Assembly: GCA_025449535.1 (NCBI GenBank) | Contig: JANWJF010000001.1 | Coordinates: 677,136-741,135, forward strand | Length of the DNA stretch: 64,000 bases | Origin: Candidatus Saccharimonadia bacterium | GTDB lineage: Bacteria > Patescibacteriota > SICC01 | Direction: 5' to 3' | Shown here: positions 14,852 through 31,942 of the stretch, piece after piece | How the letters are laid out: each line of letters begins with the position of its first letter | Numbering within the stretch: the first letter of the stretch is position 1 | The notes under the pieces: model-generated | Told to the model about the DNA's origin: nothing | What the model saw: the letters and a program-made list of their open reading frames with translations, nothing else | Databases searched by the model: none | Position numbers and translations under genes: made by a program

Positions 14852-15574
14852 ATGGACCTGCTTCTTGTATTTATTGGGGGCTTCTTGGCGGCCTTATTTG
14901 GATCTATGGCTGGGGGCGGTGCTGCTTTCTTTGGTCTTTATGCGCTGCTTTTCTTAGGACTACCGCTTAATGCTGCAATTGCCACGAACAGTTTTGGAAG
15001 TCTCGGGTTTTTCATGACTTCAATTAGGAACTTCTTTAATCAAGGGCTTGTTAACAAGAGCATCATTATTACGCTATTGGCTCTTCAAGGAATAGGTGTC
15101 GCAATCGGAACATTTCTACTTATCCAATTAAGCGGCCTGGCGATTAAAGTCATCGTTACACTAATTATCGCTACGGCATTTTTGTTATTAGCATTTCAAC
15201 GAGGCCAGAACCATTCAGGTAAGGCTAATCCATTATGGAAACCCGTGTACTTTTTTTATGCGCTGTATTCAGGTTTAATCGGGACCGGATCAGGAGCAAT
15301 CAGAACATTTTGCCTCATTAGACTAAGGAAACTTCCTGCCTTACAAGCCGTCGCGAACGGTTTTGTGGCTACATTTCCCTTTGCTTTTTTATCAACTGGC
15401 GCGTTGTTATATGCAGGACTAGTAGACATTAGGCTAGGAGTCATGCTTCTGGCGGGTAATTTGTTAGGAGCCCATATTGGATCCAAAATTGCTATCAGAA
15501 AAGGTAATGATTTTGTGCGCCAGATGGTTTTGGTTTTTATGGTCATAACATTGATAGTGGTATGGACGTTGTAG
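14852..15574 (+). CDS. TSUP/TauE-SafE-family membrane transporter (DUF81), on a low-GC single-gene insert
   Basis: Polytopic membrane protein with a GGGAAFFG motif; GC ~42% against ~65% in the flanks. Confidence 0.7.
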   Translation: MDLLLVFIGGFLAALFGSMAGGGAAFFGLYALLFLGLPLNAAIATNSFGSLGFFMTSIRNFFNQGLVNKSIIITLLALQGIGVAIGTFLLIQLSGLAIKVIVTLIIATAFLLLAFQRGQNHSGKANPLWKPVYFFYALYSGLIGTGSGAIRTFCLIRLRKLPALQAVANGFVATFPFAFLSTGALLYAGLVDIRLGVMLLAGNLLGAHIGSKIAIRKGNDFVRQMVLVFMVITLIVVWTL

Positions 15575-15634: not shown

Positions 15635-16141
15635 TTGTTGGTTATCAGATTATCCCGAACCGGACGAACGAAGCGCCCCCATTACCGCGTCGTCGTCGCG
15701 GAGAAAAGCGCGGCCGTCAAAGGTCGCTACTTGGAGGTGCTCGGCCACTTCGATCCGCGGACCAAGGAACTGAAGGTCGACGAGGAACGGACCAAGGTCC
15801 GGCTCAAGGACGGTGCCCAGCCGAGCGAGACCGCGGAAATGCTGCTCGAGAAGGCCGGCGTCCTGAAGCGGGACAAGCTCAAGGACGAACACCGTCGCCC
15901 GACGCGCAAGAAGAAGAAGGACATCAAGGCGGAAGCCGAGGGCGGGGACGCGCCGGCCAAGCCCGCGGATGATGTCGCCGCTTCCGATGACGCGGCCGGT
16001 GATTCCAAGGACGACAAGCCGGTTGCAAAGGACGAAGCCAAGAAGGATGAAAAACCCGCCGCGCAGCCGGAAGAGAAGGCCGGGGCGGACAAACCCGAAG
16101 CCAAGAAGGAAGATAAGGATAACGAAAAAGGAGGCTCCTGA
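15635..16141 (+). CDS. rpsP: 30S ribosomal protein S16 with a Lys/Ala-rich C-terminal extension
   Basis: LVIRLSRTGRTKRPHYRVVVA N-terminus; TTG start after an aggaga ribosome-binding site. Confidence 0.9.
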   Translation: MLVIRLSRTGRTKRPHYRVVVAEKSAAVKGRYLEVLGHFDPRTKELKVDEERTKVRLKDGAQPSETAEMLLEKAGVLKRDKLKDEHRRPTRKKKKDIKAEAEGGDAPAKPADDVAASDDAAGDSKDDKPVAKDEAKKDEKPAAQPEEKAGADKPEAKKEDKDNEKGGS

Positions 16142-16659
16142 TGAGCGAAGACCAGGACAGGCAGTTCGTGGAGTTCGTGTTGAAGACCATCGTCGACCGA
16201 CCGGACGATGTAAAGGTGGAACGCACCGTAGATGAGATGGGCGTACTGCTGACCGTCACCGTACACCCGGAGGACATGGGCAAGGTGATCGGCAAGTCGG
16301 GCCAGACGGCCAAGGCGATCCGTTCGCTGCTCAAGGTCGTCGGAGCCAAGAACGACGCCCGGGTGAACATGAAGATCGTCGAACCGGACGGCGGCAAGGG
16401 TCCGAACGGCGGCGCTGCCGCAGTCGCGGGAACGACCGCGGCTGCGGATGACATCCCGGTCCAGGACCGCAGCGAGGAAGAGGCCGCCGCGGAGCAGCAG
16501 CAGACCACGGCCGACCAGCCGGACAACGAGGTGGCGATGGATTCCGACATCGACGACGCTACCGGTCAGCCTGCGGACGCTGCGGACGATGACGCACCCG
16601 AACATCGGGAAGCGGTCGACCAGGGCCTCAACGAGAAATCCCCGCTGGACGAGCTGTAA
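16141..16659 (+). CDS. KH-domain RNA-binding protein (YlqC/UPF0109 family) with an acidic C-terminal tail
   Basis: KH GxxG motif (VIGKSGQTAKAIRSLL); conserved position after rpsP. Confidence 0.75.
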   Translation: MSEDQDRQFVEFVLKTIVDRPDDVKVERTVDEMGVLLTVTVHPEDMGKVIGKSGQTAKAIRSLLKVVGAKNDARVNMKIVEPDGGKGPNGGAAAVAGTTAAADDIPVQDRSEEEAAAEQQQTTADQPDNEVAMDSDIDDATGQPADAADDDAPEHREAVDQGLNEKSPLDEL

Positions 16660-16679
16660 GCGACTCCTACGACCGGGAG

Positions 16680-16712
16680 AAAATGCCCTTGACGAGGGCA
16701 TTTTCTGTTGTT
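16680..16712 (+). terminator. intrinsic terminator (AAAATGCCC ttgacga GGGCATTTT)
   Basis: Perfect 9-bp stem followed by a T-rich tail, just after the KH gene stop. Confidence 0.7.
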
Positions 16713-16749
16713 ACAGTCTTCTGGCTGTCCTTTTAAAACGCATTTTTCA

Positions 16750-16798
16750 CTCACGCGACGCCAGCTGTGCTTATCGAGCATGCCTGGCGTCGCGTGAG
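16750..16798 (+). repeat. large hairpin: 15-bp perfect GC-rich stem (CTCACGCGACGCCAG / CTGGCGTCGCGTGAG) with a 19-nt loop
   Basis: Read directly; no T-tract; 16 nt upstream of the CUA tRNA. Confidence 0.8.
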
Positions 16799-16814
16799 CT
16801 TCACGTGACAACCC

Positions 16815-16910
16815 GGAGGAGTGGCAGAGCGGTTGAATGCAGCGGCCTCTAAAGCCGTCAGTTCCCCGCCGGGGAACTTCCCACCAAGGGTTCGAATCCC
16901 TTCTCCTCCG
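16815..16910 (+). tRNA. type-II (long variable arm) tRNA with anticodon CUA; Ser-like identity (G73 discriminator, GGAGGAG acceptor stem); predicted amber-suppressor tRNA-Ser(CUA), or a pseudogene
   Basis: Manual fold: acceptor GGAGGAG/CTCCTCC (an 8th C-G pair is possible), U8, 3-bp D stem with an AGCGG…GG loop, anticodon stem GCGGC/GCCGU, loop CUCUAAA (34-36 = CUA, A37 A38), ~27-nt variable arm with a GTTCCCC/GGGGAAC stem, T-arm AAGGG-TTCGAAT-CCCTT; one base away from a Ser-CGA anticodon loop. Confidence 0.55.
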
Positions 16911-17510
16911 TTCCGGGTGCTGGCGTTCATCGCTGGAACTCACTGTTTATGAGATTGCGGGTAACACCGCCCCCGGAGTCACTTGCTGCGCAAGCAGCAC
17001 CTGCTGCGTACGGACCCGTTCGACTGGGGACCGTACTCAGGTCGGCGCGTGGCTTTTAGAGCCAGGTCGCGTGCCGGATCTTCTCCCTCGGTCGATCCGA
17101 CCAGGGAAATCGTGCGCCGAACTGTCAGGGACGGCGTCCGCAGCGCGAACGAACCGCGCCGCGACCACGAAGCGATCCATCGGGCGATAGGGGCGATGGA
17201 ATCGCAGCAGTGCCGTCGTTTCGTCCGTGCTCCGAGACGACGGTGGGCCTCAACTCATCAGGCCTATGACGGTCCGGGAGCCGGTATCTGAGACCTCGAC
17301 CTCAGCTGCCACCAAAAGGCTCCCGGACCGGAACTTCCCCCAGCACGCGGCCACGACCCATCTCGGGTTCGACACATCAGCCGCTTTCCGACTTCGCAGA
17401 CCATCCAATCTCCGAAGACTTGAATACGAAGCTCGCAAGCCTTCACCGGCGCCCCACGCGAGCTTCTTTCAATTGTGCTCGGAATCCTGCCGGATAGTAC
17501 GATTAGGGGC

Positions 17511-18203
17511 ATGAAGATCGATGTCGTCACATTGTTTCCCGACTACCTGACCGGACCGCTCGGTCAAAGCATGATGCGCAAGGCCTCCGAATCCGGGTTG
17601 GTCGAGTTCGGCGTGCACGACCTCCGGCAGTGGGGCATCGGCAAGCGCCGGACGGTCGACGGGATCCCGTATGGCGGCGGCGCCGGCATGGTGCTGCGAC
17701 CGGAGCCGCTGTTCAGGGCGTTCACGGAGCTGCAGAGCCCGGACATGCACCGGATCTATCTGACACCGCAAGGCAAGCGGTTCGAACAGTCCGACGCGGA
17801 ACGACTCGCCAAGCACAAGCACCTGATCCTCCTGGCCGGCCGGTACGAGGGGGTCGACGGTCGCGTCCGCGACCGGCTGGTCGACGAGGAACTCTCAATC
17901 GGCGATTACGTCCTCACCGGCGGGGAACTACCGGCGTTGGTGGTGATCGACGCCGTGGTCCGGCACGTGCCGGGCGTGCTCGGCGACGAGCGTTCGAGCC
18001 AGGAAGAGACGTTCTCGGAACCGCTCGGCGGCGGTTTGGAATATCCGCACTATACCCGGCCGGAAATCTTCAAGGATCCCCAGACCGGCAAGCAGCTGAA
18101 GGTCCCGGACGTGCTACTCACCGGGCATCACGCGGACATCGAGAAGTGGCGGAAGGAGCAGTCCAAGGCCGCTACGCGGTCCCGGCGTCCCGACCTGACC
18201 TAG
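17511..18203 (+). CDS. trmD: tRNA (guanine37-N1)-methyltransferase
   Basis: MKIDVVTLFPDY…GYEGVD… SPOUT motifs; ATG at 17511, within the longer track ORF. Confidence 0.9.
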   Translation: MKIDVVTLFPDYLTGPLGQSMMRKASESGLVEFGVHDLRQWGIGKRRTVDGIPYGGGAGMVLRPEPLFRAFTELQSPDMHRIYLTPQGKRFEQSDAERLAKHKHLILLAGRYEGVDGRVRDRLVDEELSIGDYVLTGGELPALVVIDAVVRHVPGVLGDERSSQEETFSEPLGGGLEYPHYTRPEIFKDPQTGKQLKVPDVLLTGHHADIEKWRKEQSKAATRSRRPDLT

Positions 18204-18456
18204 ATTGCTCAAACACCCTATCCGGTGCTTGAATCATCGCGTTACTTACTCCATCGCTCAACGGGTCGATGGCATCCATGCCATGCACCAAACCTTCCCT
18301 GAGCACATGGGCCAAGTCGAACAGCGTCCGATCGAGCTCTTCGCGTGTTTCCGGGTCCAGAGCTTCGAGGTCGAGACCTTCGATTTCGAGCGTCAGTTTC
18401 GCGGCCGGCTTGGCGACCGCTTCGGCTTCGATCCGTCCTGCTGATTCTTCTGCCAT
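18172..18456 (-). CDS. small acidic hypothetical protein (94 aa)
   Basis: ORF whose 3' end overlaps the trmD 3' end in antisense; second gene of a two-gene minus-strand unit. Confidence 0.35.
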   Translation of the reverse strand: MAEESAGRIEAEAVAKPAAKLTLEIEGLDLEALDPETREELDRTLFDLAHVLREGLVHGMDAIDPLSDGVSNAMIQAPDRVFEQSRSGRDAGTA

Positions 18457-18489: not shown

Positions 18490-19206
18490 TCATTTCGTGA
18501 ACGCGTGGAGTGTCAGATGCTTCTCGATGGCCAAGGCGGCCCGGGCCAACCCGTGCCGTCCTTCCGTACCCGCGATCTCGGAGGCCCGCAACCGGACCGC
18601 CATACCCCGGCCTTCCGCTTCGATTTCACCTTGGCCTACCTCGATTTCTGCCAGATTCCTGCCGTTCTCGTCGAAGCAATACTGGGCCAGCACCCGACCG
18701 ATGACGGAGTGTTCCAGTCCCTCCGCTTCGCGTAAGCCGCGCCGTTCCAGCGTCCACTCCGCGTCGGGTCGCACTTGCCACTCCGGTGCCGCTCCCGCGA
18801 GCAATGATTCGAGCATGTCATCGGTGACCACCTCCGGTGCCGAACCTTCCAGGGCGAACTCGGCGCGTTCGATATCGAGTACCCGGGCGGCCACGGCGAC
18901 CTGTTCCGGCGTGGCGGGTTGGTGCGCAGCGGTCTCGATCTCCTCGGCCGTCTTGAGCAGTACCGCGGCCAGGCCCCGACGTTCCCGCGGCACGCGTTTG
19001 AAAAGGCCCTTCTTACGTTTGTCGTCCTTCGCGAAGTCCTTGCGCCAGCGATCGGCCCGCTTGCCCTCGTCGCGTTCCCCGGTTTCCAGCATGATCTCCA
19101 GATGTCGAGGGTCGATCGGCGGGCATCCCGAGTGCTCGCGCAGCCAGTCGTACGTCAGTTCCACCGTCCGACGTGACTGTGGGTCCTCCCGGACGAGAAC
19201 CAGCAA
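18490..19206 (-). CDS. hypothetical protein (238 aa; TTG start, N-terminus uncertain)
   Basis: Coding-like composition; the in-frame upstream stretch has no ATG or GTG. Confidence 0.45.
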   Translation of the reverse strand: MLVLVREDPQSRRTVELTYDWLREHSGCPPIDPRHLEIMLETGERDEGKRADRWRKDFAKDDKRKKGLFKRVPRERRGLAAVLLKTAEEIETAAHQPATPEQVAVAARVLDIERAEFALEGSAPEVVTDDMLESLLAGAAPEWQVRPDAEWTLERRGLREAEGLEHSVIGRVLAQYCFDENGRNLAEIEVGQGEIEAEGRGMAVRLRASEIAGTEGRHGLARAALAIEKHLTLHAFTK

Positions 19207-31283: not shown

Positions 31284-31716
31284 ACACGATTGAGTCGGTC
31301 AGTACTGGTTGTTACGATAGGGCTACGCTTTTGCAGCTTCAAAGTTTCACTGGCACGTGTCTTCGCCCAGTTAGTGCTCAGCCCTAGGGCAGTCGACGAT
31401 CCTCCTCTAGGCGAGCTTGGCACACGGCTCGTCATGTCCTGGACGCATCCCTGCCCGTTCAGGAGCGACCAGCCGGTGGAAAAAGACCTTTCGGAATCGT
31501 CTGCGAAGAGCGGCTCCGGAAGGCACCTCTTCAAAACCTTCTTCGACACCCACGGTCCCACACCTGTCGAAGAACCCGGATCCGGTCGTCTTGCGTGGCG
31601 CGAGAAGGGCACATCGCCGACACCCTTCGCTAACCGCGACAGCAGACGACCGGATCCATCTTCATTTTTGGGCATCCCTACGATGACCCTTCCTTCGGAA
31701 AGGGTAGATTGCGGGT

Positions 31717-31896
31717 ATGCCAGAGAAAGCCAAGACGGGAGACGAGGTGCGGACCGGCGGGCAGACCCGGACCGGCGAGGTCAAGAAAGTGAAGCCGGAT
31801 GGGACCCGGGTGATCAAGACGCGCACGGGGACGCTGCAGGAAGACAAGGATCCGCAGAAACCCGCCAAGCTGGACGCCGAGAAGGACGAGGACTGA
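31717..31896 (+). CDS. possible small basic/acidic protein (59 aa, MPEKAKTGDEVRTGGQTRTGEVKKVKPDGTRVIKTRTG…)
   Basis: Short ORF with protein-like composition inside an otherwise non-coding 660-bp tRNA spacer; no strong ribosome-binding site. Confidence 0.25.
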   Translation: MPEKAKTGDEVRTGGQTRTGEVKKVKPDGTRVIKTRTGTLQEDKDPQKPAKLDAEKDED

Positions 31897-31942
31897 GCGG
31901 ACCGGCCGCTTCCGGTATGATTGAGCGTGGATGCGAATCCAC

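Follow-up and report, generated by a model that had tools for sequence, protein, structure and literature searches.

Serine tRNAs and Other tRNAs Known or Predicted to Read UAG

To our knowledge, natural chromosomal amber suppressors are rare in standard-code bacteria outside the pyrrolysine (Pyl) system. The serine suppressor of Escherichia coli, supD, is the serU tRNA-Ser in which the CGA anticodon has been changed to CUA (anticodon loop CUCGAAA to CUCUAAA), and seryl-tRNA synthetase (SerRS) does not read the anticodon. The serine identity set of E. coli consists of G73, G1-C72, G2-C71, A3-U70, C11-G24 and a long variable (V) arm. Here we describe a tRNA gene that carries the supD loop in a stretch of 64,000 nucleotides (the window) from a Candidatus Saccharimonadia bacterium (Patescibacteriota; assembly GCA_025449535.1, contig JANWJF010000001.1, positions 677,136 to 741,135 of the forward strand). 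The gene lies between the gene of a KH-domain protein and trmD, and it is best read as a natural supD-like suppressor gene within an irregular accessory tRNA cluster.

Several described systems are close to this locus. In Salmonella, a tRNA-Ser with a CUA anticodon produces 20–25% UAG read-through without a growth defect, is tolerated by the host and raises its stress tolerance (PMC11848022). The tRNA-Pyl has a 3-nt variable loop, a 6-bp anticodon stem, a short D loop that lacks G18G19 and no T-Psi-C sequence (PMC7609411). Allo-tRNAs, which are known from Clostridia, Proteobacteria and Acidobacteria, have as their defining features acceptor/T stems of 8/4 or 9/3 and a D arm like that of selenocysteine (Sec) tRNA, and were described together with “polycistrons of irregular tRNAs” (Mukai et al., 2017; PMC5389517). 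Bacterial accessory tRNA arrays and operons hold 20–43 genes beyond the canonical set and often lie on mobile elements (PMC4758250; PMC8421152). The known bacterial reassignments of stop codons all involve UGA (PMC8629427), and no report of a serine tRNA gene with a CUA anticodon in Patescibacteria was found in the literature.

A Serine-Type tRNA Gene with a CUA Anticodon

Nine tRNA genes were found in the window with ARAGORN, one of which is a 98-nt tRNA at 16814–16911 (+) with anticodon cta. Its core matches the Rfam tRNA family RF00005 at 58.1 bits (E ~6e-10; gathering score 29), which is the top-scoring family of its clan for this sequence, and this score falls inside the span of the other tRNAs of the window (52–71 bits). 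The gene and its most unusual part are the following:

16815–16910, + strand: class II serine-type tRNA gene with a 7/5 cloverleaf (ARAGORN, Rfam, five identical assemblies)
16859–16885, + strand: irregular variable region of 27 nt, with an 8-bp stem at 16860–16878 and seven unpaired nucleotides at 16879–16885 (TCCCACC; RNAfold)

The acceptor stem (GGAGGAG/CTCCTCC) is followed by G73 at 16910, and U8 and G9 are present. The D arm (GCA-GAGCGGTTGAA-TGC) carries G18G19 and has a 3-bp stem and an 11-nt loop, the same as in ordinary tRNA-Ser, while the T arm is AAGGG-TTCGAAT-CCCTT with a 5-bp stem. With its 7-bp acceptor stem, 5-bp T stem, U8, G18G19 and a T loop of the form TTCRANY the molecule thus has the cloverleaf of a bacterial class II tRNA-Ser, including a stem in the long variable arm. 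All nucleotides engaged in tertiary interactions are intact, every position of the serine identity set given above is present, CCA is not encoded in the gene, and its GC content (62%) equals that of the genome. The anticodon stem (GCGGC/GCCGT) closes the loop CUCUAAA at 16847–16853, in which CUA (CTA in the DNA) occupies 16849–16851 in place of the NGA or GCU of serine tRNAs. On folding, the anticodon arm forms a 5-bp stem and an open 7-nt loop, matching a CGA control, and with U33 and the purine A37 this loop has what a supD-type amber suppressor requires.

An earlier, sequence-only reading of the locus had proposed the tRNA anatomy, the serine-type identity elements and a CUA anticodon whose loop a single base separates from a CGA loop, and all three have held up. 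It had also considered that the CUA loop might be a sequencing error and that tRNA finders might call a pseudogene or another anticodon register. Neither is supported: ARAGORN and Rfam agree on the CUA gene, and 16640–17480 is 100% identical across five assemblies (two JGI metagenomes, the NCBI metagenome-assembled genome GCA_036560925.1 and two Logan assemblies), which represent one Patescibacteria population, so that CUA is not an assembly error. The gene at 16815–16910 is therefore a genuine serine-type class II tRNA gene with a structurally intact core. Two further low-threshold ARAGORN hits, “Val gac” at 16662–16730 and “Stop tta” at 17026–17098, score below the default, lack a T loop and Rfam support, and were rejected as spurious.

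For comparison, tRNAs were retrieved from metagenomes and viral contigs by the 5′ 27-nt pattern GGAGRRGTGGCAGAGCGGNNNAATGCA. This pattern corresponds to the common bacterial tRNA-Ser(UGA) 5′ half, and the scans gave generic tRNA-Ser and tRNA-Tyr that serve for comparison only; because the pattern retrieves ordinary tRNA-Ser, the 5′ half of the window gene is of the standard bacterial tRNA-Ser type. Among the matches listed are 155 tRNAs (130 Ser-UGA, 10 Ser-CGA, 2 Ser-GGA, 2 Ser-GCU and 11 Tyr-GUA), none of which has a CUA anticodon or is longer than 93 nt, and no member of the clade of the window carrying the tRNA 5′ half is among the matches listed of the metagenome and first viral scans. 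Within the 144 tRNA-Ser among the matches listed, G73 is present in 141, and the variable region spans 14–22 nt with one or two unpaired 3′ nucleotides before the T stem. The window tRNA, with 27 nt and seven unpaired nucleotides, lies outside this span. Because its V region is odd and recognition by SerRS is believed to depend mainly on how the V arm is oriented (PMC7609411), serylation of the tRNA by the host SerRS is plausible but not assured.

Comparison with Described Systems

The window tRNA shares with supD a class II serine body, G73 and a loop one base off CUCGAAA. The likeness to supD drawn in the sequence-only reading thus stands for the loop; the tRNA is not a clean analogue, given its abnormal variable region, and in addition no CGA ancestor was found and its suppression is predicted from sequence. 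Unlike supD and the engineered tRNA-Ser(CUA), which are essential isoacceptors mutated in the laboratory, it is a natural chromosomal gene, carried by an uncultured Patescibacterium.

Allo-tRNAs and the irregular tRNA polycistrons are similar in their long V arm, G73 and varying non-serine anticodons (CUA in the window, nominally ACC and UCG in the relatives L086 and L087; L numbers designate related loci and contigs). They also share the clustering of irregular tRNAs under one promoter, and the uncertainty of whether the role is translational or regulatory applies to both. However, the structural comparison with allo-tRNAs that the earlier reading had called for did not place the gene among them. 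The window tRNA is 7/5, with AAGGG/CCCTT as its T stem, and an optional C-1:G73 pair would make it 8/5, not 8/4; nor does its 3-bp D stem with an 11-nt loop resemble the long stem and tetraloop of the Sec-like D arm. Lacking both hallmarks, it should not be filed as an allo-tRNA. The two also differ in phylum, the window belonging to the Candidate Phyla Radiation (CPR), and in the fixed genomic position between KH and trmD. Pfam, PADLOC and NCBIfam searches gave no match for the small proteins near trmD, and within these searches no toxin-antitoxin or transposon neighbors were detected.

The label “tRNA-Pyl” that ARAGORN prints for the gene reflects the anticodon only, although the program also draws an 8-bp acceptor stem via C-1:G73. 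A tRNA-Pyl is ruled out by the 27-nt variable region, the 5-bp anticodon stem, the GG of the D loop and the TTCGAAT sequence, and a tRNA-Sec (UCA, 8/5, 6-bp D stem) by the CUA anticodon and the 3-bp D stem.

Suppressor tRNAs of stop-recoded phages likewise place a CUA tRNA beside a standard-code host. The IMG/VR contig L273 (IMGVR_UViG_3300028805_000089, 88.7 kb) carries at 948–1035 an 88-nt Ser-type tRNA with the loop CUCUAAA, adjoining a tRNA-Asn, which is a predicted phage-borne serine amber suppressor; its D arm is the same as that of the window tRNA and its body is different. Unlike phage suppressors, the window gene is located among housekeeping genes (rpsP-KH-trmD-uvrB) and belongs to a host-inherited module. 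A BLAST search of 50,697 phage records returned generic tRNA-Ser only (best match 74% over the full length), the exact 17-nt anticodon arm had six matches in the viral scan, none inside a tRNA, and gene calls and a repeat search revealed no integrase, phage genes or attachment site-like repeat of the tRNA 3′ end at the locus.

As in bacterial accessory tRNA arrays, the tRNAs at this locus are extra, partly aberrant and strain-variable. In contrast to those arrays, only one to three genes occur here, at one syntenic intergenic site, with a conserved leader hairpin upstream and with anticodon loops that are often not decoding-competent.

UAG Is an Ordinary Stop Codon

A rough census of open reading frames (ORFs) in the window gives 25 TGA, 18 TAG and 17 TAA stops, and a cleaned set 20, 15 and 14, respectively, so that TAG makes up about 30% of stops (15–18 of ~50–60). 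SMC, TrmD and UvrB stop at TAG, have conserved C-termini and match their homologues closely or exactly in length (667 aa in every relative for UvrB, 228–232 aa for TrmD and 823–830 aa in most for SMC), in agreement with the earlier view of UAG as a genuine stop. The stop-codon census and search for in-frame TAG proposed in that reading were run within the window. When TAG was treated as sense, no two coding-like segments (high GC at third and low GC at second codon positions) were joined by TAG within the 64 kb, all candidates being antisense shadow frames. Read-through extensions have a median of 36 codons after TAG, compared with 41.5 after TAA and 40.5 after TGA, and there is no backup-stop bias after TAG within the window. 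The 64 kb thus hold no genomic trace of UAG read-through. UAG is an ordinary stop, the genome uses the standard code, and the tRNA is not evidence of a code change. UCG is the commonest serine codon (35%), and a canonical Ser-CGA or Ser-UGA decoder is therefore to be expected elsewhere; it is plausible that such a decoder in the rest of the genome makes the copy at 16815–16910 redundant.

The tRNA Cargo of the Locus in Relatives

Ser-like orthologues occur behind the same promoter in L086 (TrmD 88% identical) and L087/L088 (85%). They share the D arm, T arm and acceptor with the window gene, including the motifs GGAGAGGTGGCAGAGCGG..AATGCA and GGGTTCGAATCCCTCCCTCTCCG, and differ from it by compensatory changes at pairs 5-68 and 6-67 (G-C/A-U versus A-U/G-C) and 49-65 (A-U versus G-C), as well as at 27-43 and 31-39. 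The intergenic DNA around the promoter and tRNA cannot be aligned between the window and L086, L087, L089 or L274, and the retention of the helices in such a context shows that the body is under selection. The acceptor, D and T arms are the selected parts, the anticodon being unconserved among the orthologues. The anticodon arm of L086 folds into an 8-bp stem with a 3-nt loop, and that of L087 (loop CUUCGGG) into a 7-bp stem with a 3-nt loop; as modeled, neither is decoding-competent. The orthologues score 44.1 and 38.5 bits in Rfam, and one has a 3-bp T stem. CUA is absent at this locus from every relative examined. Since the loops of the orthologues differ and are closed, the conserved role of the gene is not the reading of UAG.

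Beyond these orthologues the cargo is diverse. Some 120 nt break up the Ser-like gene of L089 (TrmD 83%), and after it comes a gene resembling tRNA-Lys(UUU), with U1-A72 and G73, which L086 also carries. L274 has kept the promoter and hairpin and lost the tRNA. Three-gene tRNA arrays occupy the locus in L090, L275 and L091, and L265 has an irregular tRNA together with Thr(UGU); the irregularities in these four loci include 6-nt loops, the lack of U33 and an AUA anticodon. L090 and L275 share 97.4% identity over 4.7 kb (~97% in the gap), and yet their second tRNA (L090 9348–9420, L275 6749–6822) differs at six of the seven nucleotides of the loop, at 2-3 and 70-71 in the acceptor, and at 73. 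Anticodon loop and acceptor identity have changed in a coordinated way, the tRNA being Ala-GGC with G3.U70 and U73 in the former and Thr-CGU with A3-U70 and A73 in the latter; a third relative, L091 (9350–9423), has the anticodon AUA at this position. The Ala/Thr switch has occurred either by recombinational cassette exchange or by remoulding of tRNA identity. As these sequences show, the tRNA cargo between KH and trmD turns over fast, with anticodon arms changing far faster than bodies. The accessory tRNAs in the related loci are lower in GC than canonical tRNAs. A TrmD-anchored scan of GTDB species genomes recovered one close relative (L006, 73%), which has no tRNA at the locus; the other 79 loci belong to distant phyla, and none of the 10 checked has a tRNA near trmD.

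Two further RNA types were observed in these loci. A tRNA-like family with a UCCGG(R)G acceptor (U1-A72) and G73 is found at L086 758–833, L089 2019–2093, L090 9248–9321, L091 9258–9331 and L275 6648–6723; the anticodon loop is canonical Lys-UUU in two of these genomes, whereas in the other three it has 6 nt or lacks U33 (CCC-type). In addition, L089 (1143–1307) and L086 (1–160) contain a second promoter and leader-hairpin module with an RNA of ~165 nt that has tRNA-like ends (acceptor GCCGAGG/CCTCGGC, the D-arm start TAGCTCAGT and the T arm CACGGGTTCGAGTCCCGTC) around an insert of ~110–130 nt. This RNA is ~80% conserved between L086 and L089, its 3′ part alone scores as a tRNA (28 bits), and comparison with Rfam families and group I introns gave no match.

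Promoter, Leader Hairpin and Spacer

The tRNA gene is embedded in the following elements:

16141–16659, + strand: KH-domain (KhpA/B-type) protein gene, upstream neighbor, stop TAA (Pfam PF13083 on the identical product; ORF list)
16678–16706, + strand: perfect 12-bp hairpin (AGAAAATGCCCT / AGGGCATTTTCT) 3′ of the KH gene, terminator-like (inverted repeat)
16689–16717, + strand: putative sigma-70-like promoter, TTGACG (16689–16694), 17 nt, TG-n-TACAGT (promoter scan)
16749–16799, + strand: leader hairpin with an outer stem of 12–15 bp, an inner stem and an apical GCUU...GAGC (fold energy, covariance model)
16911–17474, + strand: non-coding hairpin-rich spacer of 563 nt between the tRNA and trmD (folding, null homology searches)
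17511–18203, + strand: trmD (tRNA m1G37 methyltransferase), downstream neighbor, stop TAG (PF01746)

The 12-bp hairpin looks like a terminator, and its loop holds the −35 hexamer of the next promoter, an arrangement that is kept in L086, L087, L089 and L274. The promoter scan found one site where 0.2 were expected, and both hexamers, together with the conserved block GCTGTCCTTTnAAAAC downstream, are kept in the same four relatives. The earlier statement that the gene has no obvious promoter is contradicted by this site, and, given its conservation, the tRNA is probably transcribed.

The hairpin that had been noticed upstream of the tRNA is real. Its arms (16750–16771 and 16777–16798) form 22 pairs, made up of 15 perfect outer pairs and the inner stem, with an energy of −38.9 kcal/mol (z = −7.7). 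A covariance model (R1) built from five copies also picked up the hairpin twice in L265, in L266 and L091, and with a weak score in L275; the model finds it in eight genomes. All copies sit in the KH-trmD gap, always with the better score on the + strand, and none was found outside this gap in the 155 kb searched. When nine sequences are compared, both partners have changed in a compensatory manner at 15 of the 19 pairs, and the G.U pairs fall on the + strand. The hairpin has no matching family in Rfam, and the canonical tRNA genes of the window have no comparable leader. At permissive E-values, Rfam searches of the locus and its relatives supported tRNAs only; weak microRNA, YrlA and plastid matches were judged to be chance hits. 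The leader hairpin is a conserved, lineage-specific, covarying RNA motif undescribed in Rfam.

The spacer that follows the tRNA folds with a minimum free energy of −259.6 kcal/mol (z against shuffles of −6.1 on the + and −4.3 on the − strand) and contains, for example, a perfect 13-bp stem at 17270–17282/17318–17330. It is unlike the spacers of the relatives, even those with 85–88% TrmD identity, and yields no Pfam match on its ORFs and no Rfam match. Because no + strand intrinsic terminator was detected downstream of the tRNA, the tRNA and trmD may be co-transcribed.

What the Gene May Do

With moderate confidence, we regard the gene as an accessory tRNA that has been freed from decoding constraint and has reached a supD-like CUA state; as a serine amber suppressor it would be weak at most. 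It would be a member of a lineage-specific set of accessory tRNAs and tRNA-like genes that form variable cargo between the promoter-hairpin module and trmD: a tRNA-Ser paralogue no longer bound to decode a serine codon, with a loop one substitution from that of Ser-CGA. Its transcript, starting at the conserved promoter, would be released by RNase P and a 3′ nuclease, receive CCA and be serylated by SerRS regardless of the anticodon, and serine would be inserted at UAG in competition with release factor 1 (RF1). Because TAG use is high, adaptation to read-through is lacking and the V region is odd, this suppression is most likely weak, incidental or recent and not a recoding system. Of the three interpretations offered in the sequence-only reading, a recently mutated duplicate or allo-tRNA-type element is thus closer to the evidence than a recoding tRNA. 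The RNA body probably has a selected role that is independent of the anticodon. Two sister lineages have closed the loop independently while keeping the body, which suggests, speculatively in both respects, such a use and selection against a mis-decoding anticodon loop. The body might, for example, help to process the leader transcript of trmD or carry serine.

Several points weigh against this interpretation. The relatives are mostly single metagenome contigs, only L087/L088 being replicated (two assemblies), and intact Ser-like orthologues number three. The window copy is the sole orthologue with an open canonical loop (C32, U33, A37, A38), and, given this loop, decoding could equally be selected in the window genome. 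No relative has CGA at the locus, the single step from CGA being read from the loop sequence alone, and L274, L266, L092 and L006 have no tRNA there at all.

The open loop with U33 and A37, unique among the orthologues, also speaks for a dedicated, selected amber suppressor, perhaps conditionally expressed with the hairpin controlling its maturation, which would provide programmed read-through or a stress-linked change of the proteome. The conserved promoter, the intact tRNA core, the fixation of CUA in five assemblies, and the tolerance of tRNA-Ser(CUA) and gain in stress tolerance in Salmonella (PMC11848022) are consistent with it. We nevertheless consider it rather unlikely: those assemblies are a single population, no relative has CUA and the loops of the orthologues are closed, 64 kb hold neither in-frame TAG nor a backup-stop bias, efficient suppression would be costly where about 30% of genes stop at TAG, and the variable region is abnormal. 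The same extra 7-nt segment in the variable region, the lower scores of the orthologues with a 3-bp T stem in one, and the interruption of the gene in L089 and its loss in L274 would fit a decaying pseudogene, that is, a redundant tRNA-Ser copy without function that is drifting to extinction and in which CUA is a neutral accident. This is unlikely as well, since double compensatory changes maintain the helices while the adjoining intergenic DNA has diverged past alignment, promoter and leader hairpin are conserved, and the window copy scores a canonical-like 58 bits with its tertiary nucleotides intact. We hold as doubtful the broader proposal that the KH-trmD gap of this Patescibacteria family is a dedicated cassette site, at which the conserved promoter and leader hairpin drive interchangeable tRNAs with anticodons and identity elements that are actively reprogrammed, even between 97%-identical strains. 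The Ser-CUA gene would then have arisen from this system as a working gene and not by accident, either as a conditionally matured amber suppressor or as a tRNA that acts as decoy or replacement against anticodon nucleases or phages.

A foreign origin, with the suppressor tRNA as the remnant of a phage or mobile element in which TAG is a sense codon, has a precedent in the Ser-type CUA tRNA of L273, and the lower GC of the accessory tRNAs in related loci and the quick turnover of cargo would agree with it. It is quite improbable in view of the missing integrase, phage genes and 3′ repeat, the best phage match of only 74%, the absence of the anticodon arm from viral tRNAs, a tRNA GC equal to that of the genome, and a promoter-hairpin-tRNA module that is shared vertically with relatives. 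It is hardly credible, despite the ARAGORN label and its 8-bp acceptor drawing, that the gene is a Pyl, Sec or allo-tRNA or stems from faulty assembly or annotation, because the structure matches neither tRNA-Pyl (PMC7609411) nor tRNA-Sec nor the 8/4 or 9/3 allo-tRNAs (PMC5389517) and the five assemblies are identical.

The gene may represent codon capture at its very beginning, a serine tRNA having gained a stop anticodon before any adaptation of the genome to it. Should the tRNA be active, a natural population would allow a test of the “ambiguous intermediate” step in the evolution of the code; if it is inactive, automated “tRNA-Pyl” or suppressor annotation could wrongly imply an altered code. 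The comparison with relatives also points to two features that had not been described in this CPR lineage, a covarying leader hairpin specific to the KH-trmD gap and a hot spot of accessory tRNAs with fast-changing anticodon arms, and the leader hairpin and hypervariable tRNA cargo are more novel results than the Ser-CUA gene itself.

Neighborhood of the Locus

The GC content of the window is 62.8%. The genes upstream and downstream of the locus are, in order, those of LeuRS, YceD, L32, a tRNA-binding-domain protein (PF01588), NusB, a NUDIX protein, RNase III, SMC, TauE, S16 and KH, then the gap and TrmD, with UvrB and UvrA beyond. As stated in the sequence-only reading, the KH-trmD gap has no protein gene, neither in the JGI gene calls nor among its ORFs, which lack Pfam matches. 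That reading had also pointed to the absence of rimM from this position. While this is correct for the window, it is not special to it: rimM is not found between KH and trmD in any of the 11 related loci examined, and its absence there is a lineage trait unconnected to the tRNA. ORFs of ~100 aa in the gaps of L090, L091 and L006 are not RimM, have no Pfam domain and have no counterpart in the window.

Other sites around the locus are variable too. The gene of a TauE/SafE-family membrane protein (14852–15574), between SMC and rpsP, has a GC content of 41–44%, compared with ~63% for the window. At this second variable site relatives have other genes (for a serine hydrolase or unknown proteins), and the TauE/SafE gene seems to have come in recently by horizontal transfer. 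A third variable site adjoins the locus between trmD and uvrB, where the number and size of the genes differ among relatives. It holds two minus-strand genes here (18172–18456 and 18490–19206, encoding 94 and 238 aa), and those of relatives encode proteins of 136, 162, 165, 166 or 272 aa. These variable proteins gave no Pfam, NCBIfam or PADLOC matches, and thus no link to toxin-antitoxin or defense systems could be made.

S16 (15635–16141) has a long C-terminal extension rich in Lys, Glu, Ala and Asp, and the KH protein a long acidic low-complexity tail; both tails are found, though variable, across all relatives of the lineage. Within the canonical tRNA cluster of the window, between tRNA-Val and tRNA-Phe, lies a gap of ~650 nt (31286–31942) that is covered by one doubtful GTG-initiated ORF of 224 aa and contains an inverted repeat with 23-nt arms (31578–31600 and 31635–31657).

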